IMG/VR virus record: IMGVR_UViG_3300031088_000775
Length of the DNA: 64,000 nucleotides
Source: an uncultured virus (IMG/VR IMGVR_UViG_3300031088_000775)
Lineage: Duplodnaviria > Heunggongvirae > Uroviricota > Caudoviricetes
Reading direction: 5' to 3' (one strand)
Shown: in pieces, positions 18,085 through 62,890 of the stretch
Layout: each line of letters opens with the position of its first letter
Numbering within the stretch: position 1 is the first letter of the stretch
Notes under the pieces: model-generated
Database searches by the model: none
Seen by the model: the letters and a program-made list of their open reading frames with translations, nothing else
Told to the model about the DNA's origin: nothing
Position numbers and translations under genes: made by a program

Positions 18085-18240
18085 CGGGATAGCGCTGTTT
18101 TTAGACTGTAAAATCTAGATTTGGTGTAGTCATGCAGTAGACAGTATTTACTGCAAAAACTGTTAAAAACTGCAAAAACACCACCTAGTTAGACCCGAGC
18201 CTATCACGGCAAACTAGGTGGTGCTACTAGGACCGTTTTT
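18085..18240. repeat. Dispersed ~180-bp structured element, copy 1 (core loop inverted relative to flanks)
   Basis: CACCACCTAGTT(18179-18190)-21 nt-AACTAGGTGGTG(18212-18223); left flank GTCATGCAGTAGACAGTATTTACTG matches other copies. Confidence 0.85.
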
Positions 18241-18482
18241 AAGAGTTAGTATAAAATCTTAAAAACACTATTCTCAAGGGAAATTCAGTAAGCACACTTC
18301 TAAGTATTTAAGGAGCAGTTTGAACGAGTTACTAGAATAAAAAAAGAATGAAAGACTTTCTACAATAACCCCCCAATTTATAAATAAAAATAAAAAAGAG
18401 CCGCTAAAATTTTAGCAGCTCTTTTAAAGTATATACATAAGTATAAAGAAGATAACAGAGTAATTCTATAATTTATGAAGTA

Positions 18483-18854
18483 TTAGAACTTGCAGGAATC
18501 GTCTCCATGAATTTGGTCCATAGTAATCTTCTCGTTAACATTAGAGTAACAGAATGATTGACCAACCTCAACTTCTTTAAAAGTTTCTTTATCGATAGGA
18601 ATGAAAATTACACTATTATCTACACGATCTAATAGAAGCTCAACCTGCCATGATTCTGGATCAGTGTCACCCTTAATCTTACTTAATAAAGAATCAGAAT
18701 CTTCATTAATAATATGATCTTTTCCTACTACTGAGACTTTACCCTCGTAAAGATCTACACTCTCGTTCTGAGGGGATACGACTGCGCAAGCCGACAACAA
18801 ACCAATGGCTGTAAAAGCAGTAACAGCCTTAACTAAATAATTGAATTTAAACAT
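18483..18854 (-). CDS. Lipoprotein
   Basis: Lipobox LSAC; leaderless start after TGTTATAAT. Confidence 0.7.
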   Translation of the reverse strand: MFKFNYLVKAVTAFTAIGLLSACAVVSPQNESVDLYEGKVSVVGKDHIINEDSDSLLSKIKGDTDPESWQVELLLDRVDNSVIFIPIDKETFKEVEVGQSFCYSNVNEKITMDQIHGDDSCKF

Positions 18855-18922
18855 AAGTAAATTATAACAAAAAATAAAAGAAAAATAAATCTAAGTAAAA
18901 GCAGTATTATCAAACTTATAGA

Positions 18923-19843
18923 CTACAGAGAACTATTAGAAGATTTAAAAATATGCTCAAGGATAGACTTTAAAAGAAAACTATCTAGTACCTCATCTTC
19001 CCAAATATGCAAAAGTCGAATCCCTAACTGTTCTTCGCACAACCTACTTTTTAACTCATGGTATTCAGGGCCCTTAAAGACTTCACCATAACGAGTGAGT
19101 CCATTATCCATGAAGCGGGAATGAGTATCAAAATCATTAACCTCAATTGCTAAATTAAGACTTGGAATCATAAAATCTAATTCTAAAATTCTTCCATCAG
19201 TATTTCGCAAAGGTCTTTTATTACGAAGTATATCGTCAGGAGAAAGTCCAAAGTCTAAGAGTGCTTTAAAAACAATAGACTCTAACTGAGACTTCTCTTT
19301 ACCCTTACGACTATCAAACAAATCAAAATTAGCATAAGTAGGTATATTACGCACGTTAAAATAAGCCCTCACATCTTGAACCCTAGGTTTACGATTAAAC
19401 TTCTCAAAAAAGTTTTTAGCCCAAAGGTTAATACTTTTATACTCGACAGTCTTTTTAAAATCAAAGTCATCACTTAAATTAACGCAGATAGAGTCACAAT
19501 AATCAATATTCAAAGATCTACTCTCACACTTAAGATCTAACTGTGTAAAGCATCTCTTGCAATTTTTAATAATCTTCTTAAAGCAGAATTCTTGCTGAGG
19601 CGTCCCTTTAAAATCACCGCCACACATAGAGCATCTCTTAAGAATAGCTTTAGAATTAGCTAGAATGGCAGAACAGCTTTGCGAACAACTTTTAGGAATT
19701 CTTTTTCTACATGTATAAGAGTAATCTTTAAGACAATTACGACATTTAGCATTCTTTAGTTCACAGCAGAATACAGAATTAGCCCTCCCTATAAACTCAA
19801 TGTTACAGAGAGGGCATGTATGTAGATTCTTACTATTAACCAT
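18923..19843 (-). CDS. Cys-rich zinc-finger protein with C-terminal PD-(D/E)XK/Vsr-like endonuclease (homing-endonuclease-like)
   Basis: Multiple CxxC units; LELDFMIPSLNLAIEVND...LLHIWEDE. Confidence 0.7.
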   Translation of the reverse strand: MVNSKNLHTCPLCNIEFIGRANSVFCCELKNAKCRNCLKDYSYTCRKRIPKSCSQSCSAILANSKAILKRCSMCGGDFKGTPQQEFCFKKIIKNCKRCFTQLDLKCESRSLNIDYCDSICVNLSDDFDFKKTVEYKSINLWAKNFFEKFNRKPRVQDVRAYFNVRNIPTYANFDLFDSRKGKEKSQLESIVFKALLDFGLSPDDILRNKRPLRNTDGRILELDFMIPSLNLAIEVNDFDTHSRFMDNGLTRYGEVFKGPEYHELKSRLCEEQLGIRLLHIWEDEVLDSFLLKSILEHIFKSSNSSL

Positions 19844-19865
19844 TTGTAAAGACTTTCAAAAAGTA

Positions 19866-21647
19866 TTAAACATATTCCTTAATGATTTTATCAAACAAGA
19901 AAGGGTTGCTTGATTTAGATCTAGCCCCATCAATACTACACTTACCTTCAAGTACAGCATTAGCTAGCATATGTTCCATAGTAATTTTATTTCTCATTTG
20001 ATAGTCTTTAATGCCTTTAGTGTTAGCTGTAGCAATCATTTCCGAAACTTCTGGATCAATGTCTAGAACTTCACGAACGGCAAAACGGCTCTTTCCGTCT
20101 ATAGTAGGGACAAGAACCTGGTTAGCGAAACCTCTAGAAATATCTCCAAGTGTTCTTAAGATACGCTTCTGGTCATCGCCAGCAAACAGTGAACTAATTC
20201 TATTGATAGTCTCAGCAGCTGAGTTAGTGTGCATTGTGGATATAACTAAGTGACCAGTCTCAGCAGCCCTCAATAATTGACTAACTTCAGTATTATTTCT
20301 AACCTCACCCACAACAATAATGTTAGGGGCTTCACGCATCATTAAGTCTAACGCGTCAGAGAAGCTTCTAGCATCTACACCAACTTCACGCTGAACAACT
20401 ATACCAAGCCCGTCATTACCGAAAACATACTCAATAGGCTTTTCTACAGTAATAATCTTTTCTCTACGAGTACGCTGAATTTCTTTCACAAGGGAGGCTA
20501 ACGTACTAGACTTACCAGTACCAGTAGGGCCATTCATCATTACTAACCCATTTGGGAGCTTCACCCAATCTAGAAGAGAACCAGTAATACCAAGCTCCGA
20601 GGGCTTAGGGATGTTATCTGAAATAACACGGAACTGTAAAGTAATCTGACTATGATTAGCTTTACCTAAGGCTAAACGAAGTCTGCGGCCCCTATGCTTC
20701 CCCTTCTTAACAACATAGGAAGCGTCAAGCATGAAGTCTCTAACAAAATCTGCTTCAAGCTGGTGGCTAATAATCAAACGATGAAGCGTCTCAGTAATAA
20801 TAGGCTCAATAACACCGAATTGCTCTATACGATAAATAGAACCATTAATAGTATATGCAACAGAATCTCCAGGTGTAATATGAATATCCGAAGCGCCCTT
20901 ATCAATAGCTAAACCTATTACTTCATCAATCTCAAAACCACGTAAGTCTTCATCAGGGTCTTCAACTGAAGAAAAACTAGAGTTCTCAAAAGAGTCTTTA
21001 TGATTCTGCTTTGCTTCTTCATCATCATATAAATCACCTAAAACTTCATTTAGGCTACCAGTAAGGCTGTTAAGAATATCTTCATCATTAGATAGAATAG
21101 GTATAGAACTTTCTTCAACTTCTAGAAAACTACTAGAATCACCATCATCATAACGAGATTCTCTATTACTAGTGCTATCTTTTTCTAGATCATCATCAGT
21201 ATAAGGACCACCATATAAATCAAAATCATCATTATACTCAGTGTTAGAGTTACTACTATTGACGCTATATGAATCAGTTGAGTCCGCGTCAACCAAATAA
21301 TCAGTTACTACATTATCATTAGGATCTTCATAAGCATTAGGAAAATTAGGTACAGCGTAACTCGGTTCAGGCTTATTGTCAAACTCAAAATCAGGTAATG
21401 AATCATCCTCAAGAAGATAGTCTTCATCATCTAAAGAACTCTCAAGACTTGAAAAATCATTCTCAGAACTTCTATTAGAGTCGATCAAGGGCTTACTATA
21501 GTCTTTTTCAGTACTTACATAATCATTCTTAAAACCACTTCTACCTTTAGAAACTCTACCGTGATCTTGTAAACGCTTATTTCTTAAGGCCTCTAAGGCC
21601 GCCTCTTCATCGTCAAAAGGAAAAGTATCATCATTTAAATTGTCCAT
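19866..21647 (-). CDS. pilT: PilT/PilU-family type IV pilus ATPase with long acidic N-terminus
   Basis: ASDIHI, GPTGTGKSSTL, TVEKPIEY, QREVG, REAPNIIVVGEVR, AAETGHLVISTMHTNSA. Confidence 0.85.
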   Translation of the reverse strand: MDNLNDDTFPFDDEEAALEALRNKRLQDHGRVSKGRSGFKNDYVSTEKDYSKPLIDSNRSSENDFSSLESSLDDEDYLLEDDSLPDFEFDNKPEPSYAVPNFPNAYEDPNDNVVTDYLVDADSTDSYSVNSSNSNTEYNDDFDLYGGPYTDDDLEKDSTSNRESRYDDGDSSSFLEVEESSIPILSNDEDILNSLTGSLNEVLGDLYDDEEAKQNHKDSFENSSFSSVEDPDEDLRGFEIDEVIGLAIDKGASDIHITPGDSVAYTINGSIYRIEQFGVIEPIITETLHRLIISHQLEADFVRDFMLDASYVVKKGKHRGRRLRLALGKANHSQITLQFRVISDNIPKPSELGITGSLLDWVKLPNGLVMMNGPTGTGKSSTLASLVKEIQRTRREKIITVEKPIEYVFGNDGLGIVVQREVGVDARSFSDALDLMMREAPNIIVVGEVRNNTEVSQLLRAAETGHLVISTMHTNSAAETINRISSLFAGDDQKRILRTLGDISRGFANQVLVPTIDGKSRFAVREVLDIDPEVSEMIATANTKGIKDYQMRNKITMEHMLANAVLEGKCSIDGARSKSSNPFLFDKIIKEYV

Positions 21648-24520
21648 AGATCTCTCTCCTTAAAGACACCATTTTCAGTAATAATAGGGACTATATCAAT
21701 CCCACCTTCTTGATGCAGACCAATATCTCGAGCTACCTGAATAAGCTTACGGGCTGGGCCAGTGTTCTTGCAAACCCAAACAACTTTCTTATATAGTCTT
21801 TTATCAGCCTTATATGCTCTCAAAGTGCGCTCATAAGAATCCAAAGCTTTATTGCTAATCTCAATCTCAACAGCAATAGAGTTAGGTGAGCCATCCGGAT
21901 TCCTAGGTCGCTTAATAACTAAATCGGGAACGTGATAAGCAACTCGCAAAGCCATAGGAGGATACAAAGCCCACATATACTCATTACCATACTGCATCTC
22001 AGGGCTATCACCAAATTCTGGACCGCCTGCTGCTTCCCACTGCTTGAATTCTTTATCAATACGACCAAGCAATTGAGGGCGATAAACATCCGAACGATCA
22101 AACATACGCATCTTACCAAAAGACGATTGAATCTCTAACTCAGACACTAAACTCTCTCCATAAATTCTTTTACCCTTATCATCAACCCTATTCAATGCTG
22201 GAAAACCATCTTGATTCAAAACATTAATATTAGCACCCCACAAATTTGCTGCAGTATTATTAACAGTGAACTGATGCGGGAACATGCTAAAAGTTAATTT
22301 AGACTCTGTAATACGAGGTAAATCATAACCACTCAAAATCATTCCAGCAGACGTTAAAAACCATATAGGGCGATTACCATAAATCTTCTTATCAATAACC
22401 AAGCCCTGCTGACGCAACTTCTTCAGCCTATTATAAGTAGTTCCAATAGCTTCAGAAAACATTCTAGACAATTGAGCGTCAGTAGCATAACGGAACAAAG
22501 CTAAAAATTGAAGCAACTCTCGATCTTTCTGACTAAAACGCAAACGATTATTACGCTTAAAAGCGTCCTTACCCTCTAAGGCTCGAACAATCTTATCAGC
22601 ACGAACCTTACGCTCAGACTCCGACTCATTCCAACCCAACGGACTACGCACACCCTCAAGCAAATCAGGATTAGCCTTAACTTCAGCCTTAGATTTAGCT
22701 AAATTCTTGAAAAACTCTAACTCAGCAACATTCATCTTCCCGTCTTTAGAAAGATAACGATACCTCTCTCTATCTTTAGACTCAACACTAACTGAATCGC
22801 CAGCACTTGCAACTACCTTAGAAACAACTTCCCCATGTTCATCAACAAGCACTTCACGCACATTAGATTTACGGAAACCAGTATCCAACGAATCAATAGG
22901 TACAGGTTTACTACGAGTATCAACAGGCTTACTAACAGGAGAATCAGCAGCAATACGACTCAACTCTTCACGAGCTACAGCACGATCACGCTTCATCTTA
23001 CCGCGAATCTTACTCTTCAACTCACGCTGCCCAGTCTTAACTTCAGCATTTTCACCAGTAGGAACAATATCCTCTCCAGCGTTAGAAACAACACGACTCA
23101 ACAACTCGCTCGAAGACTCACTAATACTAGAATCATTCTTAAACTTACTAAAAGCCTCTAACTCTTCATCGTCCCCACCAAACAACTCATCAAGCATACC
23201 ATCAAACGACTCATCATCACCAACATTATCAGCGGAATCGAAACCCTCAAAAGTTGAATTATCTTCCTCAAAGGAGCCAGGAATAAAACGTTTAGGTTCA
23301 GGCTTAATATTATCTACAGATGAATACTCAACAGAAGAATCATAATCAACATCATCTAAACTATACTTAGAAGAGCTACTCAATTCCGTCTCATCGTAAA
23401 ACTGAACCGTCTCATCAACAAGATTATCATCAAAACTTTCAGAAAAATCATCATCGAACTCTAATGAATCACCATCAATAAAACCATCTTCAACATCAGA
23501 GTAGTCTGAATCAAAACCTAGATCAGAGCCCTCAAGTGCACTTCTAGAATCTTTTTCTTCATCCTTAGCAAAGCCCGTGAACAACTCTCCATCAAGTGAA
23601 TCACCATCAGTTAAATCACTCTCAACAGACTTACCATCACCACTAAAAGAGCTACTCAAGCTTTCAAAATTATCACTCAAACTACTATTTGAAGTGTGCT
23701 CACCCTTATTACGATCACGATTAAAACTTAACTTAAATGGTTTATCAGATGTAGAACTGCTTTCTAAATCGTTACCATAAATACTATCTAAAGTATTACC
23801 GACTGAATCACCACTGCTAAAACCATCAGTCTCACTACTTCTCGAACTAATTCTAGAATCACTTACAGACTCTTTAAAAGCCTTACGGACATTAGGATTA
23901 AACTTAAACACAGGCTTAACTTCATCGCTACCAGTAGAATCATCACTTAAAGAGACATTACTAGAATCTTTAGAGCCCCCCACATGTGTGCTTTCACCAT
24001 TATTTTCATCGTTAGTAGAAAGAGAAACACCACTTAAAGAATCATTAATGAATGTTGAAAATGAATCATTAGTAGTACTAGAAACACTATCACTATCATT
24101 TAATACTTCACTAACAGTATTATTAGCATGAGTAGAATCATTCGAATCATTAGACTTACTAGCATTATCAACATATGTATTATTACTTAATAAAGTACTA
24201 GAATTATCAGGTGTGCTACTACCGTTAGACTCAGGTGTGCTTAAAGTACTTTTATCAACACTAGTTGACTCTGTATCTACATCATTAGTAGATGGTATAT
24301 TTAAAGGTTTACGAATCCTTTGAGAATTAGGTCTACTTGCATGGTTCGAGCCACTTTCAGACTCTTTATTATTTGAGGGTATATTTAGAGGTCTCATTCT
24401 TACAGGCTTTCGATCATTAGAATCACTGCCTCTATTAGATTCATTTTCAGAATTTTTGAAAGCATTTAGATTAATAGGCTTACGCCGAAGAGAATTAGAT
24501 TCATTGTTATTTACTGACAT
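21635..24520 (-). CDS. Replication-relaxation (Replic_Relax-like) protein with ~600-aa Ser/Asp-rich disordered N-terminus
   Basis: C-terminal wHTH (KDRELLQFLALFRYATDAQL...RLKKLRQQGLV...WFLTSAG), PHQ, VPDLVI, AVEIEISNK, i.e. a PD-(D/E)XK-type core. Confidence 0.7.
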   Translation of the reverse strand: MSVNNNESNSLRRKPINLNAFKNSENESNRGSDSNDRKPVRMRPLNIPSNNKESESGSNHASRPNSQRIRKPLNIPSTNDVDTESTSVDKSTLSTPESNGSSTPDNSSTLLSNNTYVDNASKSNDSNDSTHANNTVSEVLNDSDSVSSTTNDSFSTFINDSLSGVSLSTNDENNGESTHVGGSKDSSNVSLSDDSTGSDEVKPVFKFNPNVRKAFKESVSDSRISSRSSETDGFSSGDSVGNTLDSIYGNDLESSSTSDKPFKLSFNRDRNKGEHTSNSSLSDNFESLSSSFSGDGKSVESDLTDGDSLDGELFTGFAKDEEKDSRSALEGSDLGFDSDYSDVEDGFIDGDSLEFDDDFSESFDDNLVDETVQFYDETELSSSSKYSLDDVDYDSSVEYSSVDNIKPEPKRFIPGSFEEDNSTFEGFDSADNVGDDESFDGMLDELFGGDDEELEAFSKFKNDSSISESSSELLSRVVSNAGEDIVPTGENAEVKTGQRELKSKIRGKMKRDRAVAREELSRIAADSPVSKPVDTRSKPVPIDSLDTGFRKSNVREVLVDEHGEVVSKVVASAGDSVSVESKDRERYRYLSKDGKMNVAELEFFKNLAKSKAEVKANPDLLEGVRSPLGWNESESERKVRADKIVRALEGKDAFKRNNRLRFSQKDRELLQFLALFRYATDAQLSRMFSEAIGTTYNRLKKLRQQGLVIDKKIYGNRPIWFLTSAGMILSGYDLPRITESKLTFSMFPHQFTVNNTAANLWGANINVLNQDGFPALNRVDDKGKRIYGESLVSELEIQSSFGKMRMFDRSDVYRPQLLGRIDKEFKQWEAAGGPEFGDSPEMQYGNEYMWALYPPMALRVAYHVPDLVIKRPRNPDGSPNSIAVEIEISNKALDSYERTLRAYKADKRLYKKVVWVCKNTGPARKLIQVARDIGLHQEGGIDIVPIITENGVFKERDLWTI

Positions 24521-24851
24521 TCGATTGACCCTTAGAGATTTTTTAAAGTTTGAAACCTTTAATATTCAATATCAAAATTAACTAGAATTGGGTCGGATAC
24601 TACTAAGTACTGTTTTAGATGCAGTTATTATACATATATAAAAACTAAAGTCAACTTTGACAGCGACTTACTAACGACCTGAGCGCTAAAATCGCAAATC
24701 ACCAAAGATGATTTGAAGACAGTAGAAACCTGTTAAGTAACTATAGGTACTTTAATACGTGCAATACACTATATGTATTTAGGTAAATGTACTAAAACCA
24801 TTAAATGTGCTTTAACTATTAAACGTATAGATTCATAGCGGGGCTTGCGTT

Positions 24852-25039
24852 AGAGTGGTGGCCTGCCGGTAGGGTGAGCCTTGGAGCCTGGCGGCTCCTG
24901 CGTCTCACTGCGCTTCGGAGCTGGCGCTCCTTCGCTTCTTTACTTCACTGCTGGCGCAGTTCGTAAAGCCTACCTGCAGTCAAGTCAGCGAGGCTGCCTG
25001 TAAGAGAGTCAGTGCCTGCCTCACTTACCCCACCACTCT
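24852..25039. other. Multi-branched GC-rich hairpin element
   Basis: AGAGTGGTGG/CCACCACTCT closing stem enclosing three hairpins with identical TGGC loops (24883-24898, 24917-24930, 24947-24960). Confidence 0.7.
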
Positions 25040-25081
25040 GTAGGGTGCTTTCGGACACTTGAACTCACTTGAAACCAGTGA

Positions 25082-25471
25082 GTGTGCGGTTAAACTTTAA
25101 CCTCGCTACGTAAGTCTGACTTCGTGAATCCTTACTGAAGTGCTTCAAGAAACCCTCCTACTTAAGAAACTATCTCGCCTGACATTACGTGTGTGCGGTA
25201 CACTCCATGAAAGCTAAAGCGTGTGCGGTGCACTGCTTCAAGTTACTATCTAAAGTTGACTTAAGGAAACCTGCTCGGTACCCTCACTGAAAGAGAGGTG
25301 TGTGCGGTACACTGTGACTCGAGAGGCCACTCTCCCCGCCAGGGCTCAAGGGGCCACCCTGACTTGACACTTACTCGCCCACCTGTAAGGTACGCGTGTG
25401 CGGTGACCTACTCGACTTCACTTACGTGAACCCCGTGTAAACCATCTCGCCTGACACTACGTGTGTGCGGT
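25082..25471 (+). repeat. Iteron-like direct repeats GTGTGCGGT (6 copies)
   Basis: Copies at 25082, 25191, 25221, 25300, 25396, 25463; two extend to ATCTCGCCTGACAyTACGTGTGTGCGGTrCACT. Confidence 0.8.
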
Positions 25472-25499
25472 GCACTGCTTGATTGAAGTCTAACTCAAA

Positions 25500-26400
25500 G
25501 GTGAGTGACCCGACGGTACTAAACTCACGAAGCGCGAAACAGCTGACTGTACCGAACCAACTCTAAAGTGGTGCAGAGGAGCGTAAGCTGTAACTCGCTA
25601 GGTGAAACAGAACGAGAAGCTCGGAGTGTGAAACCGAACCGTAAGGGGCGGGTGCAACACGACTGAAAGCTGAAGCGGACTGGAGAACCGCGAACCAGCT
25701 GAAGCGTGAACGAAACCACAAAAGAGTGTGAAGGTACACAGCGAAGCGCTGGAGTGACACACCCAAGAAACCAAGGGTGATAAACCCGCGAGACTACAAA
25801 CCAAAGGAAAAGCTTGAAACGCAAAGCTAACTGAAGGCTGCGATGCATCCCCCTCAGGGGGTGCAAGCAAGCCGAAGGCACTAAACCGCCACCACAACCG
25901 AACCGCCCCAGCGGTGAGAAGCGCGATCCGCCAGGATCCGCTTAACCCGAGCGCCAGCGAGGGCCGCCACGCAACCACAAACAAAACCGCAACCCCCCCT
26001 TACAAATACTCGGGTACCGAGTGAGTGAGACGTGTGCGTCGAACTGTAAAGAGAGTCACTTGTGTTGTGAGTCTAATGTAGCGTACTAATAAATGAAGTG
26101 AGTCGTGTTTAGCGTATTGATCAAGTAAGCGGTGTGAGTCGTGTATAGCGTGAGTGTTGAAGAAGAGTAATTTGAGTGGTGAATTTGAGAAGCTTAGTGA
26201 AGACTGTGTGAATGGTATTTGAATCGTGTCTGGCGTGATTGGTTGAGAAAGCGACTGTTTGATGAGATCTGATGATTACGAAGACTGTGTCTAGGATGAT
26301 TGCGTGTGACTGTGTAAATGGGAAAGGAGAGAAAAGAGATGAGAGTAACGGAGACGGGGAGTGGAGAGGTAGAGAAGCTGAGGGTGCTGGAGTGGTCTGG
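25500..26400. other. Putative replication origin region (strand-skew switch)
   Basis: Plus strand is A/C-rich up to ~26007 and G/T-rich after the ACTCGG-GTA-CCGAGT palindrome (26008-26022); GTGAGTCGTGTnTAGCGT-like repeats at ~26067-26240. Confidence 0.55.
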
Positions 26401-26442
26401 TTGTGGAGTGGAGAATTGTTACGCTGAGCGCTAGGCTGCGGC

Positions 26443-27360: not shown

Positions 27361-27526
27361 TTTTAATCCTATGTATTGCTTTCTTTAATTGTTTATGTTT
27401 TGAGTGCAGTGTTATTTGTTGAGTGTTTTTGTTTGCGTTATAGAGTTTTTGTTTTTTGAATTATGATTGTTGTTTGTTATAGTTGTGTTGAATGGTAAGA
27501 CTAAGTGGGGTGTGAGGGGTTTTAAA

Positions 27527-27697
27527 GTGGACGTGGATTTAAAAGCAATGCTGGATGAGCATTTGGGTAATTATGAAAAATATTCTAAAAGGTCTATGAA
27601 TTCTGACTCGCCAACTTGGGCTGCAGTTTACGCTGATTTGGCTTCTTCGGAGGCGCGGATTGTTGCAGCATTGATTAGCAAGATTCCGAGTGTTTGA
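27527..27697 (+). CDS. Small hypothetical protein
   Basis: GTG start after GAGGGG; downstream of promoter motif. Confidence 0.55.
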   Translation: MDVDLKAMLDEHLGNYEKYSKRSMNSDSPTWAAVYADLASSEARIVAALISKIPSV

Positions 27698-27793
27698 GGC
27701 TTTCTAGAATTTTAGAATTGTGGTTTTAGATAGATTTCAATAATAAGTAGGCTTCACTAATTAAATGAGAAACAATTTTAGGATAAGTAAAAG

Positions 27794-28213: not shown

Positions 28214-28354
28214 TTCTTTTATAAGATTTTAATGAAAAGAATAGAAATGGAATTTGATTGTTGAATGTCTTATAATAAGTTTTATTCTTTGTTTTTGATA
28301 AAGTTTAATTGAGTTATTTTTTAAGATTTTTAATTGTTAGGAATGGTTTGAGTA

Positions 28355-28501
28355 ATGAGTGAAGATTGTAAGAATGGTAAGTGTTTTGATTCTGATGAGT
28401 GTGCGAGTCTTTTAGAGTGTGAAGCTAGTGAGAGTAGCACTCCTGTGAGTCGTTTTTCTGATGGTGGAACTTTTTCTCCTAGAGTTATTCGTAAAGGTTA
28501 A
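28355..28501 (+). CDS. Small Cys/acidic protein (48 aa, not in ORF track)
   Basis: MSEDCKNGKCFDSDECASLLECEASE... Confidence 0.4.
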   Translation: MSEDCKNGKCFDSDECASLLECEASESSTPVSRFSDGGTFSPRVIRKG

Positions 28502-32410: not shown

Positions 32411-32549
32411 ATCTAGTTAAGATAGTCTCTGTAATTTGAGATATTCTTTTCCTCTCGTAGTCAATTAAGGTCGGATCGGTAATCTATCTTCGACTCTTGG
32501 GAGTATTTATGAATGCTTTTTGAATGAATACTGTTTGAGGCAGTATTTT

Positions 32550-32715
32550 TACTGTTTTATAGATCGAGTAGAAACTGCGCTACTAAGCGCGTCTAGTTAG
32601 ACCCGAGGCTATCACGGCAAACTAGGTGGTCTTTTCGTGTTTCTATGCAGTTTTGACGGAAAATGCTGTTTACTGTATGACTATACCCTAAGAAGCTTTT
32701 TGCTGTCTTAGACTG
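32550..32715. repeat. Dispersed ~180-bp structured element, copy 2
   Basis: AGATCGAGTAGAAACTGCGCTACTAAGCGCGTCTAGTTAGACCCGAGGCTATCACGGCAAACTAGGTGGTCTTTT...ACTGTATGACTATACCCTAAG. Confidence 0.9.
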
Positions 32716-32958
32716 CAGTCTCTCTGTAAAGAGCAACCTTCCTCAATTCAGAAATCATAGGATATTCTCTCTTTAAAGTCTCGACGATCACGCAGTGCAA
32801 TTATTATTGAAGAATAATTCAAAGTTTACGTTGTGTCTCTATTGGATGTATAAAAGTGGAGTTGCAGAATACTATGCACCCTGCAACCCCACTAATAAGC
32901 TGGTTATTCAGTAACGAATACCGAACCTGCATCAGCTCTGGAATCAATTCTTAATGTT

Positions 32959-37820: not shown

Positions 37821-37997
37821 GTCGAGCCTAAGCAGTCTATAGCGTCGTTTTTACTTCTTAGGGTAGAGTCATACAGTAGACAGTATTTACTGTCAAAACT
37901 GCATAGAAACACGAAAAGACCACCTAGTTTGCCGTGATAGCCTCGGGTCTAACTAGATGCGCTTAGTAGCGCAGTTTTCGCTCGATCTAGAAAACAG
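37821..37997. repeat. Dispersed ~180-bp structured element, copy 3 (opposite orientation to copy 2)
   Basis: Near reverse complement of copies 2 and 5. Confidence 0.9.
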
Positions 37998-38046
37998 AAA
38001 AGTTTTACCTTATTGACTGAGTTATGAAAGAGATGAGTTTGATCTA

Positions 38047-39218: not shown

Positions 39219-39244
39219 CTTTTACATTACTTTAAAACAAAAAA

Positions 39245-39323
39245 GAGACCACCTAGTTTGCCGTGATAGCCTCGGGTCTAACTAGGTGGTCTCAATAATG
39301 TAGTTTCTACTCGATCTAGAAAC
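39245..39323. repeat. Dispersed structured element, copy 4 (partial)
   Basis: GAGACCACCTAGTTTGCCGTGATAGCCTCGGGTCTAACTAGGTGGTCTC...AGTTTCTACTCGATCTAGAAA. Confidence 0.85.
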
Positions 39324-39391
39324 CTGATATATTTTCGAGAACAAGAATTTTAGCAAATATTCTTATAGAAAAGTTACTTCAGAAAGACTTT

Positions 39392-43117: not shown

Positions 43118-43255
43118 TTTTAATTCCTTGGGTTAGAGATGGGGGCATTTGAAAAATGTTTTTAGTGTCAAATACAACTATACACGAAAACTTTTAAAAG
43201 GAAAACGTATCTAATAGCAGAGCTTTTGAAAAAACGCTGAGCGACAGTTATTTTT

Positions 43256-43431
43256 CAGTTTTCTAGATCGAGTAGAAACTGCGCTACTAAGCGCGTCTAG
43301 TTAGACCCGAGGCTATCACGGCAAACTAGGTGGTATTTGCTGTATTTTCGCAGTTTTGCAGTGAAATGCTGTCTACTGTATGACTATACCCTAGACAGTA
43401 AAAACGACGCTACAAGACGCTTAGGCTCGAC
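43256..43431. repeat. Dispersed ~180-bp structured element, copy 5
   Basis: About 70 bp identical to copy 2 through the hairpin, plus the conserved ACTGTATGACTATACCCTA...CTTAGGCTCGAC tail. Confidence 0.9.
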
Positions 43432-43576
43432 ACGTAAAGTTCAGCTTTGAGTGTCTCTCTAATAAGAATTTTAGGCAAGTCGCTAATCTAAGTTCATTAA
43501 TGAAAATTGTGTCTAAAATTAAAGACCTGTTGTATAGTGGTTTTCATATGAAAGTACCTAAAACAGAGGAATAAAT

Positions 43577-46634: not shown

Positions 46635-46658
46635 GTCTGAAGCTCCTTAAAACTTTAA

Positions 46659-55359: not shown

Positions 55360-55640
55360 AATCCTGTCAATAAGTTTTTCAAAGTTTTGAGTTTCACGAA
55401 GATTTGTTTTCGTGGTTCGTACAAATACAACTATACATCATTCCTTCGAGTAATGCAAAATCTTGCTGAGCTTTCAAAAAAGTTCAAGCTTGTTAAGGGT
55501 CAAGATCTTAAAAACAAGTAGAGTAAAAACAAAAAGACCACCTTCTTTTGAAAGATAGCCTTCATGTTGTTTTCAAGCTATTTGGTTCGCAAGTAACTTG
55601 AAAGTTTATGAGAATCAGAACAGTACGTAATTTTTAAAAA

Positions 55641-55997
55641 TTAGGAAAGTAGATTTTCTGAGTTAGTGATCGATAGATTCCCGCTATCTTTGAGCGAGAG
55701 CCATACAGTCATACCATTCTTCTTGAGATTGTTAGCGTAAGAAGAATCAGTAAGGCACCAGTTTTCATCAATGGAGTCTTCAGGAATCATGAAGGTAAAG
55801 GATTCATCAACTTCATTGTTGACTACAATGCCATTCACTATGAAATCGAACCAAACCGAATTGTTCTTATCCAAATGCATATTTCCCTGGAACTCCGCCG
55901 AAATGTCCGAAGTGTTTGACTTGTCCCAACGGCGATCCTTCAAGGCTTCAACAATCATGTTCCCCATGAGTTCAGTTTTGTGATTGATGTTGAACAT
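55641..55997 (-). CDS. Hypothetical protein
   Basis: ATG 55997 after AAGGA; promoter motif. Confidence 0.6.
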   Translation of the reverse strand: MFNINHKTELMGNMIVEALKDRRWDKSNTSDISAEFQGNMHLDKNNSVWFDFIVNGIVVNNEVDESFTFMIPEDSIDENWCLTDSSYANNLKKNGMTVWLSLKDSGNLSITNSENLLS

Positions 55998-56202
55998 GAT
56001 TCCATATCCTTTGAATTGTTTAGTAGTTCCTGACACATACAACTATACATGAAACTCTAATAAGTGCAAACAATATTAGCAGGCGCAGTAAGAATCAACA
56101 GTCAATTCTTAAAAATGATACAGACGCAATAGGTCTTCAGAGGCTGGAGTAAGCAATATTTTGTAAAATTGTTAAAAATCAGTTGAGAGCAGCATATTTT
56201 AT

Positions 56203-56375
56203 TGTTTTCTAGATCGAGTAAAAACTGCGCTACTAAGGCCACCTAGTTGGACCCGATAGCACAACGGCAAACTAGGTGGTCTTTTGCAGTAAAATGACAG
56301 TTTTGCAGTGAAATACTGTCTACTGTATGACTATACCCTAAGAGCCATTTTTGACTCTATAGACCGCTTAGGCTA
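56203..56375. repeat. Dispersed ~180-bp structured element, copy 6
   Basis: CCACCTAGTTGGACCCGATAGCACAACGGCAAACTAGGTGG with conserved flanks. Confidence 0.9.
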
Positions 56376-56409
56376 CAAGCAAAAAAGACAGTCTCTAGAC
56401 TTTGAAAAG

Positions 56410-57137: not shown

Positions 57138-58019
57138 CTAATTATGAGAACTCAAAAATTCTCTAATCGCATCTTCAGTCTCTACACGATTCTTCATCCA
57201 TTCATCAGACCAAACATGCAACAAACAAATCCCTAAATCTTTACAAAGTCGTTCTTTCAAAGCCTCACGCGAAGACTCAGTACCGTCAGCAACATCCCTC
57301 AAATAAGCCTCTCTATCATGCCAACGAATTCCATTGTACTCTATCGCTAACTTCAAGCTAGGGATGTGAATATCCAACTGCATTGCCCCACCAGAGCCAG
57401 GCCTCGAAATAACAGAATAGTCCCCATTAATCACCTCAACAGTTTCAGAAAGACATTCTTTAACAAACTCAAAGACTTCTAACTCTTCCTTTGAAGCGTG
57501 ATTGTAGTACCAATTCTTCCCATACCGCTCTTTAATAGTCGATTGAGCTTTCTTCACCATCTCTTCAATACGCTCAGGATCTGAGTAAAGCTTAGACATT
57601 CCTTCTTTGCGGGCTTTCTCTTTTGCTTCATCAGTTTTAGTTATATCAAAATCAGAAAGTATTTGCCTAAACCTTTCTTTTGTTATTCCATAATGATTTG
57701 CGCAAGTCTTTAATGATAAATTTTGAGTAATATATAAATCAAAGACCTCATCCCTTGGAATTACGTTCTGAACTAGAGGTTCAGGTTTTATATTAGTCTT
57801 GAAGACTGACTCACCTCTTGACTCAAATTCTTTAAAATTTTCTAGTGGCTGAGGCTTTATTTTACGCTGGCTAGCGTCAATTCCATTCTTGTTCATAATA
57901 CTTATAAGTTTGCCACTAGAGAATCCAAATATTTCAGGTAAGTCTGTGGATTTTATTCCTTGATTAATAAATACTTCAATAAGATTCTCGATAGTCACTG
58001 GAAGATACTCTTTACTCAT
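57138..58019 (-). CDS. HTH-containing PD-(D/E)XK/Vsr-like endonuclease (homing-endonuclease-like)
   Basis: QLDIHIPSLKLAIEYNGIRWH...LLHVWSDEW; N-terminal HTH-like segments. Confidence 0.7.
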   Translation of the reverse strand: MSKEYLPVTIENLIEVFINQGIKSTDLPEIFGFSSGKLISIMNKNGIDASQRKIKPQPLENFKEFESRGESVFKTNIKPEPLVQNVIPRDEVFDLYITQNLSLKTCANHYGITKERFRQILSDFDITKTDEAKEKARKEGMSKLYSDPERIEEMVKKAQSTIKERYGKNWYYNHASKEELEVFEFVKECLSETVEVINGDYSVISRPGSGGAMQLDIHIPSLKLAIEYNGIRWHDREAYLRDVADGTESSREALKERLCKDLGICLLHVWSDEWMKNRVETEDAIREFLSSHN

Positions 58020-58020: not shown

Positions 58021-60180
58021 TTATTTCAACTCAATCGCCGTTTCTAAAACTTCAGGCTCCGGCTGCTTAGCATAGGCCTCTTGCATTTTCGCGTATGGTT
58101 TAATTTGCGCTACCGGACAGAGTTTTGCAGCTATGCACCATGAGCAAATAAATGACGGTTTGTACTCAAAAGTATTCGTCTCAGCGAAGTTATCTAGCGC
58201 CTTGTCTGCTTTTTCGACATCTTCGATAACTTTTTCTAGAAGTTCTTGATCGTCTACATCAACATTGACTACATCTCGAGCGACGGGGAAGATTAGTCTT
58301 GCGCCTGATACATCAATGTCATCCTGTCGTAAGAGGATAGTGTAGATTAGCTGCTGGCGAGCCTCTGGCCATCCATCCATTGATTTTAGATGCTTCTTAT
58401 ACTTCTTTGCCTTCGCCCCAGTATTGTGAGTTAAAGTGAAGTTTTCGCCAAACTGATATAGAGAATCCTCAGCATCTACCCCAATACATTGAGTCGGTAC
58501 TGATTCTACCTTCTTGATATTTCGGATATACTTTCGGGTAGACATATATTTAGTCTTTGATGTTGGAGCGTAATCTTCAACAAGTTTTCGCTTTCTTTCG
58601 AGAAGGAAAGGATTTAATGAGAACGTGGAGAACTCTAAAGAATAAACAGGCTTGTCATAAACTTCATTGTTCTTCCATGAAAGTTTCTTCTCAAGTACAG
58701 CGTGATACGGAGTTATTCCGAAAGTCGAAATAAGAGACATTACGTTATAGAACAACTCTTCTTTAATTCCCCCAAAGACAGCTCTATTTCGAGTTTTGTT
58801 CCATGTTCCGTCTGAATCCATTAAGCCTTGTAATAAGGCTAATCTTTGGTCGTGGCTAGCAAATAAGTATTCTTCAGGAATATGCTTGTTATTTTGAAGG
58901 TTATTCCTCTTTAAGAGAGTACTTAGACTTACATTGTATCCATCTCTTCTTGACAATCCCTTAGTTTTTGCAGCGTATTTACATTCATCACAGAAATCAA
59001 TATGAGGATGACTCTTATGAAGATTTCCAAAACTACAGCCAGCCTCAATCAATTTCGGAAAACCTATGCTATAATGACCAGACTTTTTGTCAAGAATCTT
59101 TTTAGCTGTAGGCCAGATTTTCTGCAGTCTTTCGAAAGTTTCATCAATATCTTGGTTCCCGACAGAAATGTACCCACCGCTACTATCTCCGTCACCTAAC
59201 CAGTATCCAAGAAGATATGGGTCAATTGGTAGATCTTTTTCTGGTAGATCTAGAGGTTCTGGGTTTACAATTCGGAAAGCAGCTGTTAAAGGATCTGAGA
59301 ATTTTTCGAACAATTCTTCTGTACTCAAAACCTCAGAAATAAACTTACCAGTTTTTTCACCAGCATGTTTTTTGTGGTTGTATTCAACCTGCCATAAATG
59401 CACATTATCAGATGTAACAGTCTGATTTGACGTAAATTCAAGCTCGTAACAATCTCTATTGTGAATGCCAGACTTTTTGACAATCTTCGTGGGTTTACCA
59501 TTAGAGCCGAGAACATCTTCACCTTCTTTAAGCTCAGCCATAGTCTTAAAACCAGTGGGTGTCGGGATAGGAGTGTCTAATGCTAACCCCTTCCAATCCT
59601 CTACTACTATCGACCCATCATTACGTTTAGTATTCTCAGTAACCCGGTCTATAAACCCTAGAGTCTGTCGTTTAGCTTTACCAATTTTACCTTTGACGAA
59701 GATTTCTAAACCGTCTTGAGGTTCCTGCCCTCTTACTGAAAGTTTAGCGATTTTGATGTTTTGCGGTTTAGCTCCCATCGTGTAATAACCATTGACTGCA
59801 TCTCGAATCCAAGCGATTACTTCAGGGTTAGTGGACAAGTCTACATATTCTTCTGACTGTAATACAGTATCGACTTCTTCTTTAATTCTGTCGGTAGTTC
59901 TTTCTTCAGGTGGGAGTGCGAAGAAGTTTTCCATAACTTGATGGAATAGGGATCCGCGGCGTGCAGCATTGTCTGGTTCTTGCTCGATTACTTCGGACTC
60001 TACGAATGAGCTGATCGCCCATTTTGCTGGACATGTTTCGATGCCAGTGATTAGAGAGGCGGAGATGTTTTTCTTTTCGAAAGCTTCTACAACTTTAGGG
60101 TGCACTAGATGGACACCTTCATAATCCATAGAGACTAGAATTTCTTGATTGCCGTTTTCGTCTAAATACTTTTTAGCCAT
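58021..60180 (-). CDS. Cas4/AddB-like PD-(D/E)XK exonuclease interrupted by an intein
   Basis: SAS..TCP, RGSLFH, GFIDRV, EDWK|TG, QQLIY, CSWC..LCP (4-Cys cluster); extein is 330 aa. Confidence 0.85.
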   Translation of the reverse strand: MAKKYLDENGNQEILVSMDYEGVHLVHPKVVEAFEKKNISASLITGIETCPAKWAISSFVESEVIEQEPDNAARRGSLFHQVMENFFALPPEERTTDRIKEEVDTVLQSEEYVDLSTNPEVIAWIRDAVNGYYTMGAKPQNIKIAKLSVRGQEPQDGLEIFVKGKIGKAKRQTLGFIDRVTENTKRNDGSIVVEDWKGLALDTPIPTPTGFKTMAELKEGEDVLGSNGKPTKIVKKSGIHNRDCYELEFTSNQTVTSDNVHLWQVEYNHKKHAGEKTGKFISEVLSTEELFEKFSDPLTAAFRIVNPEPLDLPEKDLPIDPYLLGYWLGDGDSSGGYISVGNQDIDETFERLQKIWPTAKKILDKKSGHYSIGFPKLIEAGCSFGNLHKSHPHIDFCDECKYAAKTKGLSRRDGYNVSLSTLLKRNNLQNNKHIPEEYLFASHDQRLALLQGLMDSDGTWNKTRNRAVFGGIKEELFYNVMSLISTFGITPYHAVLEKKLSWKNNEVYDKPVYSLEFSTFSLNPFLLERKRKLVEDYAPTSKTKYMSTRKYIRNIKKVESVPTQCIGVDAEDSLYQFGENFTLTHNTGAKAKKYKKHLKSMDGWPEARQQLIYTILLRQDDIDVSGARLIFPVARDVVNVDVDDQELLEKVIEDVEKADKALDNFAETNTFEYKPSFICSWCIAAKLCPVAQIKPYAKMQEAYAKQPEPEVLETAIELK
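58423..59589 (-). mobile_element. Class 3-type intein with LAGLIDADG homing endonuclease (389 aa)
   Basis: GLALDTPIPTP...HLW...LLGYWLGDG...LLQGLMDSDG...TQCIGV...LTHN|T. Confidence 0.88.
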
Positions 60181-60379
60181 GATTTTTACCTATGTTTAGT
60201 TCTGTTATTTTTTGTTTTATAGACTTTGAGTCTTTTTTGTATAGATATGTTTTACCAAAAATATATGAGGTAATTCTTATCGCTATTAGTACTGGTGGCG
60301 GACTTAGCAAGAAAGCCATGTCTATTCATTTTGAAAGTGTTCTTCAAGCGAAGTCACTAGCTTATTTCAAACTTTTGGA

Positions 60380-60556
60380 GTCGAGCCTAAGCGGTCTATA
60401 GAGTCGGTTTTAGCTCTTAGGGTATAGTCATACAGTAAACTGTATTTTCTGTTGAAACTGTCATTTTACAGCAAAAGACCACCTAGTTAGCCGTTATAGC
60501 CTCGGGCCTAACTAGGTGGTCTTAGTAGAGCAGTTTCTACTTAAAGTCTAAAACAG
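60380..60556. repeat. Dispersed ~180-bp structured element, copy 7
   Basis: AAGACCACCTAGTTAGCCGTTATAGCCTCGGGCCTAACTAGGTGGTCTT with conserved flanks. Confidence 0.9.
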
Positions 60557-60664
60557 CAAAAATACTGCTTAAGTTTGTTATTTTAAGAAAAGAAAGTTTA
60601 GAGTACTCTAAAGAGAATAAAAGATTTATTTACTCTTTTTAAAAGATTCTCTAAGAATTAATTA

Positions 60665-61645
60665 TTACTGATAGTCATCCCATCCTTCAGGTGTTCCTCC
60701 AGAAGAAATCCAAGTTTCTCTATCAGTAATTTGAGATCCATTTATATAAAAACTTACAATTCTATCGTCGGTAGAACCCGTTGAAGAATAAATATATGCT
60801 GGCCCGTCAGTTCTATGGAATTCTCCGTTTATGCGCCACTCTTCAGATAGAACACCTTTCCCATCATTTGTTAGATTTGCTGACGCAGCGGCACCCTCTC
60901 TATGTGCTTTCCCTTCAGCGTTTACATATGAATAACCAATCTGAACTCCTTCTGAGTTAAAGGATTCTTGCGCTATTCCTGCAGTGTTCACCCCTTTGTC
61001 TGTGATGTTTACTTCATTAGAAACGTATGAAACAGTACAAGTACCGCTTGCGTCATCAAAGAGGAACATATTTGGCCCGGCTGTGTTTACTGTGGAAAAC
61101 GAAATATTAGCGAACATTGCTGAACCGCCCTCTTCATAAAGAATTGACCATCCGTCAGTCACTTCACTAATACCAGAAGTATCACCTGCATTTGCTTTAT
61201 TAAAGTTTTCTACACCTTTTTCATAATTTTCTTTGCTGATGGTGTAACTATGAGGACCGCATACAAATTTTGTGCTGTCACTTGTAGTAAAGATACCCTT
61301 TTCGAAATCGCCTGAAGGCTCAGAGTTCTCGCCAGTATTAACTGGAGGAACGAAAGTGCTTTCTCCGCAGTCACCTTTTTGAGCGTTAATGCTAGGATCT
61401 GACTCGTAATATCCTGACACACAGATTTTGTGACTAGAGTCTGCTTCAACTTTAGTCAATAAATTAGAAATACTAGGATTCGGTCCAATAATTGCGGCTG
61501 CTGCTATTAGAGTTAAACCTATAGAACCTAATCCAAGCATTTTCTTTATTCTAGAATTGCTTTTAAAGCTTTTATCCGTAGCTTCTATGTCAATTCTTTC
61601 TTCATTGTTTTTATTAAACAATTTTACTGCCCCCATTTTAAACAT
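60665..61645 (-). CDS. Membrane-anchored extracellular protein with C-terminal HRxDGPA-type repeat
   Basis: Single TM; HREGAAA, WRINGEFHRTDGPAYI, FYING. Confidence 0.65.
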   Translation of the reverse strand: MFKMGAVKLFNKNNEERIDIEATDKSFKSNSRIKKMLGLGSIGLTLIAAAAIIGPNPSISNLLTKVEADSSHKICVSGYYESDPSINAQKGDCGESTFVPPVNTGENSEPSGDFEKGIFTTSDSTKFVCGPHSYTISKENYEKGVENFNKANAGDTSGISEVTDGWSILYEEGGSAMFANISFSTVNTAGPNMFLFDDASGTCTVSYVSNEVNITDKGVNTAGIAQESFNSEGVQIGYSYVNAEGKAHREGAAASANLTNDGKGVLSEEWRINGEFHRTDGPAYIYSSTGSTDDRIVSFYINGSQITDRETWISSGGTPEGWDDYQ

Positions 61646-61912
61646 TAAAGTAAACTTCTTTTAAAATTTTGATTAAAATTATAAAATACCTCAGTTTATA
61701 TCAGACTTTATCATTTTTGGAATATAGTATGTAATTTTCTGAGAAAACGCAATGATCTTTGGTCGTTGCGTAATTCTTATATGTAAATACAGGAAAGATG
61801 ATAAAATTATAATTAGTATAGTCTTAAAGGGATCTAAGAGTCTGCAAATACTCGAGAGACTTATTGTAAGTAAGTGTCGTTAGAGTCGAAGTAAAGTGAT
61901 GGAGGGTTAACT

Positions 61913-62722
61913 GTGGCTGAATGTATTAGCGATAGTTTTTCTTTAACAGAATATTGCGAAAGGCTTAAGAAGTCTTTTGAAAATGACGAGTTAAGTGACT
62001 ATGATCTATCTTGTATAGATGTAAAATTTAGAGTAGATGTAATCGTTTATTTCTGGTCTAGAATTGGACTTTCAGAATTTTATTTGCTCTTCGCTAAAAA
62101 TCATGATTTTAACGAAATCATAAAAGACGATAGAGCTTTTTCTGTAATTGCTAAAAACATGTTCAAGCGAGATAACGCTATAATAATTTGTACTTTGATT
62201 ATTAACACTAGTGTCCCGACTGTTCTTGATCATAATAAATCTATTTACATACTTCACTTCTTTTCAAGGCTTAAGGATATCTCTAAAAATGGTTTTCTTG
62301 ATTTTAAACAAACTAGAATGAGGGTCTCTAAAATTGACTCAAGTGGTAATAGAGTTAAGCTTTTAGCAGCTGATCCTACTAGTCTAGTAAAGAGAAATAA
62401 TAAATCAAAGAAGAAATTTCCCTATTATGGAGTTCTCAATCGGGATACTGCTGACGGTGCTCCATGGAGAAGAATTACTAAAGATATGATTTTTAGTGGA
62501 GATAGAGTCTCAGCAATATATTATATTCATTTTTGGTCTAAAACAGTAGACTATAAAATTCAGAAAGCTGTTGCAAGTTTCTTTGAAGATTATCGAGAGA
62601 TTGAGCCTAGCTTCTTCAGTATCACTGTCGTTACTGAAGTCTTTGAGAGTCACGCCACTCGTAAGGAAGCCATTCAAGACTTAGAGTCCATGCCGTTAGA
62701 GTGGCGTGCAGCTATTAATTGA
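61913..62722 (+). CDS. Hypothetical protein with C-terminal P[IL][ES]W motif
   Basis: Ends ESMPLEWRAAIN; GGAGG RBS. Confidence 0.65.
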   Translation: MAECISDSFSLTEYCERLKKSFENDELSDYDLSCIDVKFRVDVIVYFWSRIGLSEFYLLFAKNHDFNEIIKDDRAFSVIAKNMFKRDNAIIICTLIINTSVPTVLDHNKSIYILHFFSRLKDISKNGFLDFKQTRMRVSKIDSSGNRVKLLAADPTSLVKRNNKSKKKFPYYGVLNRDTADGAPWRRITKDMIFSGDRVSAIYYIHFWSKTVDYKIQKAVASFFEDYREIEPSFFSITVVTEVFESHATRKEAIQDLESMPLEWRAAIN

Positions 62723-62806
62723 TGCCTTCTAAATTCATATAGGAATCAAGATATCTTCAAAAGATTAGAATGCTAAATTAATGTCTGCGAGATTGTAGCC
62801 TAAGAA

Positions 62807-62890
62807 CGAAAAGACCACCTAGATAGCAACGCTATAGTTGAGTTATCTAGGTGGTCTTAGTAGCGCAGTTTCTATTAGATCTAGTTTACA
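62807..62890. repeat. Dispersed structured element, copy 8 (divergent, compensatory changes)
   Basis: AAGACCACCTAGATAGCAACGCTATAGTTGAGTTATCTAGGTGGTCTTAGTAGCGCAGTTTCTA. Confidence 0.8.

Follow-up and report, generated by a model that had tools for sequence, protein, structure and literature searches.

The 64,000-nucleotide (nt) stretch of the uncultured virus record IMGVR_UViG_3300031088_000775 (the window, at its full length) contained eight copies of a non-coding element, all of them intergenic and each centred on a terminator-like hairpin. These eight stretches are genuine copies of an uncatalogued multicopy non-coding family, and their hairpin, which was much more conserved than the remainder of the element, is under constraint. 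On balance, we read the family as a lineage-specific, modular, terminator-like, non-coding interspersed repeat that bears comparison with SPRITE, BOX, ERIC or Correia elements. Most likely it belongs to a kind of small intergenic repeat, selfish or co-opted, that other bacteria are known to carry: the family itself is uncatalogued and lineage-restricted, and its kind, interspersed palindromic repeats, is familiar. The DNA probably belongs to a small-genome bacterium of the candidate phyla radiation; its RadA and LigA gave equivalog-level matches to bacterial models, its contig measures 697,643 bp, and relatives of its RadA-like protein at 55-63% identity are encoded on contigs of 0.39-0.83 Mb.

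Extent and build of the repeat family

An earlier inspection of the letters alone (the sequence-only reading) had reported eight copies of a ~180-bp element. All eight were confirmed at their positions, both by scanning for an 11-mer of the hairpin arm and by a profile search; the length needed correction, with the full element measuring ~190 bp in the alignment of the five full-length copies (alignment A2). Copies are named c1 to c8 in window order (Table 1). An nhmmer hidden Markov model built from the five full copies (c2, c3, c5, c6 and c7) recovered 8/8 loci and no further locus in the window. The arm 11-mer ACCACCTAGTT, exact or with one mismatch, occurred 14 times in the window, always inside the eight loci (14/14); at two mismatches or fewer there were 21 matches, compared to 12.5 ± 3.8 in shuffles. 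Full copies were 73-83% identical overall (10 pairs), and repeat finding, which sorted the eight loci into direct and inverted families, gave 93% complementarity between c2 and c3 across 148 nt, the centre being far better kept than the whole. The copies formed a family with subfamilies, including partial and internally deleted forms. Orientation alternated along the window, five copies lying one way and three the other, and all copies fell within 18-63 kb, where small unknown genes abound; the dense block at 1-18 kb contained no copy.

Table 1. Copies of the repeat, and one possible relative, in the window.
Feature	Positions	Strand	Hairpin	Form	nhmmer E value	Context
c1	18068..18262	+	18180-18222	full length, old, diverged	9e-18	convergent gene pair, each gene with its own hairpin and T-run
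c2	32539..32722	-	32588-32630	full copy, 10-nt deletion in left module	5e-56	convergent genes
c3	37821..38008	+	37919-37961	full copy	5e-63	two + genes flank; T-run strand opposite to both
c4	39237..39327	+	39248-39290	partial: right module, hairpin and T-run only (profile positions 91-180)	2e-23	reversed between tandem genes; hairpin begins 28 nt past the stop codon of open reading frame (ORF) 38769-39218
c5	43244..43432	-	43292-43334	full copy	6e-61	between divergent genes, upstream of both promoters
c6	56188..56379	-	56238-56280	full copy	1.5e-59	two - genes flank; T-run strand opposite to both
c7	60379..60569	+	60478-60520	full copy	9e-61	two - genes flank; T-run strand in same direction as both
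c8	62795..62898	+	62814-62855	internal-deletion form	3e-13	ends ~25 nt past the stop of ORF 62923-63525, read on the T-run strand
possible degenerate relative	55533..55563	-		terminator-like hairpin (13 pairs); repeat finding 76% over 37 nt		78 nt downstream of ORF 55641-56042, co-oriented with it

The full element comprised a left module of ~95 bp, a variable spacer, a hairpin whose 14-bp stem encloses a nested inner one, and a right module of ~50 bp. We read it on the T strand, that is, the strand on which CTTTT follows the hairpin. On this strand the right module (~50 nt) came first, opening with a small CAGTA...TACTG palindrome; then followed the 14-bp stem (AAG ACCACCTAGTT / AACTAGGTGGT CTT) enclosing a ~21-nt loop with an inner stem of 3-4 bp, the T-run, a variable spacer of at least two types, and a CAGT/ACTG-rich module able to form a hairpin of its own, followed by a terminal CCTAAG...CTTAGG hairpin. 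Hairpin-forming segments lay near both element ends as well as at the centre. The core stem, ~21-nt loop and inner CCG/CGG stem were as the sequence-only reading had described them. In c8, a 10-nt left terminus (GTAGCCTAAG) was fused to the spacer and followed by the hairpin and right module, so that both termini were kept. The words CTAG and CAGT/ACTG were 3-5 times denser within copies than across the window, and minus-strand nhmmer matches (E 9e-6 to 1e-2) reflected an imperfect internal dyad symmetry around the hairpin. A further hairpin at 55533-55563 shared the GGCTATC loop motif and GGTGGTCTTTT with the element; it was not recovered by the profile of five full copies, and is possibly a degenerate relative, to judge from these shared motifs.

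The central hairpin is conserved as a structure

We tested a named structure consisting of the main stem, the inner stem, AAACTGC/GCAGTTT, AGTA/TACT and the CAGT hairpin (35 pairs, 258 cells). Of the cells, 85.7% were paired, falling to 35-49% when partners were slid by 1-3 columns, and double-sided changes occurred in 7/35 pairs compared to 1.7 ± 1.1 in shuffles, none of which reached seven (0/500). Three of the seven double changes were in the main stem (in c4, c1 and c8), two in the inner stem, one in AAACTGC/GCAGTTT and one in the CAGT hairpin. Within the main stem, 93.8% of cells were paired, six of the 14 pairs were invariant and three carried double changes. The claim that both arms of c8 had changed in compensation held up: the arms differed by a U-A to A-U exchange at columns 59/83, and its inner stem, CAAC/GTTG, differed from that of other copies yet still paired. 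A wider claim, that the element is a multi-stem structure with covariation, held for the central hairpin, where five of the seven double changes were found, and failed for the outer stems, which hardly covaried. Double changes were seen in 0/4 pairs of AGTA/TACT, in 1/8 of AAACTGC/GCAGTTT (76.6% of cells paired) and in 1/6 of the CAGT hairpin; many outer-stem cells were unpaired, and the stems were mostly either invariant or broken. Support for the outer stems is weak. Folding of single sequences gave the central hairpin in every copy, with a remaining fold that varied between copies. The hairpin dominated when c7 was folded as DNA (z = -4.4). Folded as RNA, c6 had z = -2.7 for the T-run strand and z = -1.5 for its complement.

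Strand asymmetry and changes within the palindrome

A T-run of 3-6 followed the stem on the T strand in 8/8 copies, and three consecutive T directly after the stem were found on the other strand in 0/8. The sequence-only reading had also pointed to G-U rather than A-C pairs on the strand of c2, c5 and c6, and in terms of counts this held: of 261 cells, 22 were G-U on the T-run strand and 9 on the opposite one, or 17 and 5 after dropping the flipped loops and the c4 and c8 cells beyond homology. Several of these cells were co-inherited. Since c2, c3 and c5 share one clustered change, the G-U asymmetry rests on few independent events; moreover, minimum free energy was lower on the T strand in only 5/8 copies, and pair 40/109 in c6 and c7 was asymmetric in the reverse direction. 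Strand specificity, which had been proposed for the element as a whole, is therefore suggestive only, with the T-run and the G-U count speaking for it.

Several changes pointed to the DNA level. The clustered change of 4-6 bases in one arm of c2, c3 and c5 altered GGTGGTC such that it formed a perfect small GCGC...GCGC hairpin with the following bases, and looks like a templated, palindrome-perfecting mutation. Five copies had the loop motif GCTAT, and c1, c6 and c8 had its reverse complement, ATAGC, between unchanged flanks. In c1, the loop was the reverse complement of that in most other copies while the flanks kept their orientation, and its centre was also matched on the minus strand (nhmmer E 1e-12); the variant loop of c6 was accompanied by one G-U pair in the stem. 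The clustered arm change and the flipped loops imply that DNA-level processes act between the arms, so compensation alone is no proof of selection on RNA: in a DNA palindrome, compensating arms can also be explained by templated inter-arm repair without RNA selection.

Gene context, promoters and termination

The genes flanking a copy were convergent in three cases, tandem in four and divergent in one. The hairpin had the stem and T-run of an intrinsic terminator (14 bp, 93.8% paired; T-run in 8/8), although a position behind a co-oriented gene was not the rule (4/8). A simple terminator scan omitted it, as the ~21-nt loop with its inner stem exceeds the loop definition of the scan. In three of the four tandem contexts the T-run strand ran opposite to the genes; this is in line with a filter favouring low-harm sites, but four cases prove nothing. 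As c5 lies upstream of both divergent promoters, neither adjoining gene would transcribe it. Random orientation to genes speaks against a general cis-regulatory or small RNA role, as does the position of this full copy in a promoter gap between divergent genes. The pattern of gene contexts fits an insertion-like repeat tolerated at low-harm sites, and not a dedicated cis-regulator or small RNA gene.

The left module contained GTATAGT, which is also the core of the -10 region in the window's ~18 gene promoters; no -35 box lay at the proper distance from it. The final base of a promoter-like box on the other strand was C (TATGAC), as against T in those promoters (TTTGCA-N17/18-TATAGT). The T strand read hairpin, T-run, TTTGCA-N18-TATGAC, an order that mirrors the gene promoters. 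Taken as a promoter, the left module faced a gene start in 3/6 copies on the GTATAGT strand and in 2/6 on the TTTGCA-N18-TATGAC strand. The gene promoters themselves shared a promoter-like box that was strongly conserved, TTTGCA-N17/18-(TG)TATAGTTGTAT, often with TTGTACGAACC after it, at ~18 sites between 30391 and 56941. This box always faced the next small gene, with an AAGGA ribosome-binding site after it, and had 28 matches at two mismatches or fewer compared to 6.3 in shuffles.

Copy number and history

Contigs from four public runs were placed on positions 32001-52000 of the window. Their summed depth, which by the tool's own warning is not a copy number, was 565-1351 at element positions in run X1 against about 27-37 for single-copy positions (16-39x), 174-289 against about 10 in run X2, and 171-427 against about 7 in run X3. 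The left-terminal part was shallower (243 against about 35), agreeing with the modular forms in the window. These depths suggest that each genome has tens of copies. At every copy in this region the contigs of all four runs broke, and none bridged a site; in run X3, there was also no contig cover in bins 38004-38670 and 39338-40671, and no contig joined across either. The element was present in strains from several habitats.

The clustered arm change shared by c2, c3 and c5 was accompanied by a different spacer in c5, and the copies are therefore mosaics. The oppositely oriented pairs c2/c3 and c6/c7 gave no inversion joint among the 15 joints listed, of 68 in all. Joints from element ends to 48061 and 50354-50375 are possibly artefacts of repeats, with short sides of 20-52 nt that are 85% alike. 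Away from the element copies, one run-X2 contig exchanged 192 bases for 17 others at 41299-41492, an intergenic indel between strains.

Database and family searches

Rfam gave no match at gathering score on either strand of the whole window, in keeping with the sequence-only reading, which had recognised no known family. Rfam E-value scans of 24400-30500 and 47300-50700, stretches that hold no element copy, also returned no match. A stem-only pattern had no match in IMG/VR and one in GTDB species genomes, a cyanobacterial hairpin, which was rejected as a relative: its loop and flanks were unrelated, and a DNA search of that genome with c3 found nothing. This cyanobacterial record and a matching metagenome contig (L001 and L002) shared the 11-bp arms around an unrelated 21-nt loop, terminator-like behind a gene, and were judged a coincidence because the flanks were without homology. 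A stem-plus-loop pattern had no match in JGI metagenomes. Eight metagenome loci with the stems around a free loop of 15-25 nt were read as chance hairpins, with no flank homology among nine loci at nhmmer E <= 1. Neither megablast of 30001-55000 (plasmids and phages) nor blastn of c3 (plasmids) found a match. Among titles and abstract starts of the literature on Saccharibacteria/Patescibacteria we found no account of interspersed repeats. RadA had no relative in IMG/VR; its closest relatives in a large protein set were 88% and 72% identical and came from Logan assemblies only, with at most about 62% in JGI.

Interpretation and alternatives

Under the reading of an interspersed repeat, the family would have multiplied by copy-and-paste into the intergenic DNA of a small bacterial genome, and copies would have been tolerated or co-opted by context. 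The hairpin may have been kept as the part recognised by the spreading machinery or, alternatively, as an intrinsic terminator or 3'-end hairpin once transcribed, on the CTTTT strand. A copy behind a co-oriented gene would then stop transcription, while a copy in the opposite orientation would be a stable hairpin only, which transcription would pass.

A number of observations weigh against this reading. The copy-number estimate rests on summed contig depth in metagenomes, which is not true copy number. No empty site was seen in the four runs on 32001-52000, where contigs break inside every copy, and the contig breaks of run X2, the nearest other strain, fall at the same four copies, such that its sites look occupied. 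Identities of 73-83% indicate no recent burst, and present-day mobility is unproven. Inspection of the five full copies by eye, with ends fuzzy by 1-3 nt, found no shared direct repeat as a target-site duplication. There were no terminal inverted repeats at the mapped ends (alignment A2 and c8); the left end, GT(CG)AGCCTAAGC, and the right end, ...ATACTGC, are not mutual reverse complements. None of the 59 window ORFs had a Pfam transposase domain, a result that covers the window only. Read as a T-strand terminator, the hairpin lay behind a co-oriented gene in c1, c2, c7 and c8, a frequency (4/8) at chance level; c3, c4 and c6 were reversed between tandem genes, c5 lay between divergent genes, and c1 sat between genes that already possess their own terminators.

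The family might instead be a single-strand-acting DNA site, folded on one strand and acted on by a strand-specific enzyme whose gene lies elsewhere in the genome. This would be either a Y1/HUH transposase, as with REP/REPIN-RAYT or IS200/IS605 miniatures, or a site-specific single-stranded DNA nuclease of the Ssn type whose targets are incoming or replicating DNA. The excess of G-T over A-C mismatches on one strand (22 compared to 9 cells), hairpin-forming segments at both ends and the centre, the retention of both termini in c8 and the high stability of the hairpin as DNA would all suit such a site, and PMC11893778 reports hairpin repeats cut as single-stranded DNA from several phyla. However, the asymmetry derives from few independent events, and the alternating orientation (5 compared to 3) leaves no replication-strand bias visible. 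The published degenerate Ssn-related motif, searched as a regular expression on both strands, had no match in the window (mean of 0.1 in 30 mononucleotide shuffles), and a Pfam scan of the 59 window ORFs found no GIY-YIG, Y1_Tnp, HUH, transposase or integrase domain, agreeing with the earlier statement that the window has no transposase or integrase. We consider this explanation unlikely. Selection on the T-run strand as structured RNA, either a multicopy small RNA or a cis-acting leader or 3' untranslated region (3' UTR) element, appears quite unlikely. Compensatory changes in the main and inner stems, the series A-U, G-U, G-C at pair 33/116, a hairpin and U-run that form a natural 3' end, and the -10 core shared by GTATAGT all favour it, but that box has no suitably spaced -35 and its other-strand counterpart ends in C instead of T. 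Orientation fitted a terminator in 4/8 copies, a forward promoter in 3/6 and a reverse promoter in 2/6; a well-kept full copy, c5, is placed upstream of the two divergent promoters; three of the eight copies have a flipped loop motif; the outer stems barely covary; and no conserved peptide is encoded.

T4-type phages carry promoter-stem-loop cassettes, and on this model the element would be a recombination linker or regulatory cassette, a 3' UTR-terminator-promoter spacer that travels with small gene modules and serves as a homology patch for shuffling. The promoter-like order on the T strand, the restriction of all copies to the small-gene region, and the inverted pairs c2/c3 and c6/c7, which bracket gene blocks of 5.1 and 4.0 kb with the same polarity, are consistent with this idea. 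We nevertheless find it improbable: only c7 is co-oriented with both neighbours, neither pair showed an inversion joint among the joints listed, the -10-like box is defective, and the promoter-like half is absent from partial copies. A mere shared terminator, inherited by descent with no spread, is disfavoured and seems very improbable, despite the hairpin and T-run in every copy and a degenerate relative (55533-55563) at an expected terminator position. The flanking homology of ~140 bp extends far beyond any terminator, a co-oriented gene precedes only half of the copies, the neighbouring genes are unrelated, and depth indicates tens of copies.

A more far-reaching proposal, which we hold to be rather doubtful, is that the element is a strand-specific folded module (the hairpin with side hairpins or a three-way junction) selected in an ultra-small bacterium. 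It would then belong to a broader, as yet undescribed class of structured mobile repeats in genomes of the candidate phyla radiation, acting as single-stranded DNA or RNA, for example as portable transcription stops or as sites for a single-strand enzyme tied to DNA uptake or transfer. Reduced genomes of ~0.7 Mb are expected to shed selfish DNA, and here a structured repeat of ~190 bp seemingly occupies tens of intergenic sites. If the hairpin is a portable terminator or transcript-end hairpin, then in an organism that has few regulators the family would shape operon boundaries; should it be the site of a single-strand enzyme, it would point to a new system of mobility or DNA-uptake control. 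The present evidence describes an ordinary interspersed palindromic repeat, of use mainly as a strain marker and as a comparative case in uncultured small-genome bacteria.

Other features of the window

Four ORFs resembled homing endonucleases (57-1160, 10047-11474, 18923-19843 and 57138-58019; PHROG HNH/homing endonuclease families), two of which shared a nuclease-like C-terminal domain only. A link between these genes and the element was rejected, the small ORFs adjoining c1 and c6 being unrelated (E 0.35). At 58021-60180, a protein of the PD-(D/E)XK nuclease type contained a LAGLIDADG intein-like insert. A cluster at 5452-24520 resembled a pilus or DNA-transfer apparatus, encoding a TadA/VirB11-like ATPase, two T2SS-F-like membrane proteins, TcpE, a TcpF/VirB4-like ATPase, a ParA/MinD-like protein, a PilT-family ATPase and a 961-aa protein with a weak MobC-like stretch. 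Its middle was occupied by a LigA of the chromosomal type. No tRNA was found in the window.

A stretch of ~1.9 kb at 24840-26700 had no long ORF and an odd composition, and fell within the 24400-30500 region in which the Rfam E-value scan had no match. Its first half was GC-rich and T-poor with a repeated GTGTGCGGT(R)CACT word, and its second half G/T-rich and C-poor, with three GGGGAATGC...GTGTTTTTCTTTTTT units (26440, 26546 and 27328). A second repeat family occurred at 47364-47442, 48054-48115, 48683-48737 and 50069-50136, as two direct and two inverted copies that were 86-95% alike. It resembled the shared 5' end (…ACCTTACCTACC ATG GAC …) of small ORFs, and its summed contig depth in run X1 was 2-6x single copy. 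Nearby, 50340-50500 was not significant as a structured RNA (z = -0.9).

Comparison with known systems

Of the candidates named in the sequence-only reading, a REP/MITE-like unit gave the best fit, and an attC-like site and a multicopy small RNA fitted poorly. In an integron attC site, each end of an imperfect palindrome carries one of two paired core sites, R'' and R' (RYYYAAC / GTTRRRY); an integron integrase lies nearby, and the cassettes are promoterless and all run the same way. The element reads GTCTAAC on one side of its loop and GTTTGCC at the partner position (alignment A1), the genes between copies run both ways with their own promoters, and there is no integrase in the window, and an attC site was therefore rejected. 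A classical MITE with terminal inverted repeats was likewise rejected at the mapped ends. REPs are units of 20-40 nt, often clustered, with the gene of a Y1 transposase (RAYT) flanked by REPs. Correia elements are not known to have a cognate transposase. Unlike REP/RAYT, the present unit is ~190 bp long, and no Y1_Tnp domain was found in the 59 window ORFs.

REP/BIME/REPIN sequences, which PMC3184786 mentions, resemble the element as extragenic hairpin palindromes in both orientations that can stabilise or end transcripts. ERIC/IRU and Correia elements (CREE/NEMIS) are likewise imperfect palindromes of ~100-200 bp, intergenic and in both orientations, which form long stem-loops if transcribed, and some copies of which affect mRNA ends or bear promoter-like boxes (PMC3184786). 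In contrast to the element, whose ends are not inverted repeats and show no duplication, these are described with clear terminal inverted repeats and a TA target duplication. The Neisseria NTS/dRS3 and Ssn-related motifs share a tagged hairpin in which the stem outweighs the loop, and possible single-strand action (PMC11893778), but these are units of 20-50 nt, and in the window neither the published degenerate motif nor a GIY-YIG gene was found.

Along with the ERIC and Correia palindromes, the closest parallels are two repeats of Streptococcus pneumoniae. Like BOX, the element is modular and single modules can be missing (c4 and c8), its outer modules partly pair, and its middle module folds alone (PMC3049150, PMC3184786). 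BOX as portrayed there has three defined modules, tandem boxB, terminal inverted repeats and target duplications, none of which was seen in the element. Pneumococcal SPRITE, with 30 copies, has an 18-bp duplex and a U-rich tract and is enriched after convergent genes, and no target duplication is established for it (PMC3049150). The element differs in its two modules, which add ~140 bp of conserved flanking sequence, in its nested inner stem, in that only 3/8 copies lie between convergent genes, and in its different, uncultured host lineage. The likeness to SPRITE rests on build, no sequence similarity having been searched for or found: both are interspersed non-coding repeats of <200 bp with tens of copies per genome near gene ends, both have a duplex core longer than that of ordinary terminators followed by a T/U-rich tract, and in both, clear terminal inverted repeats beyond A/T runs are lacking and target duplication is not established.

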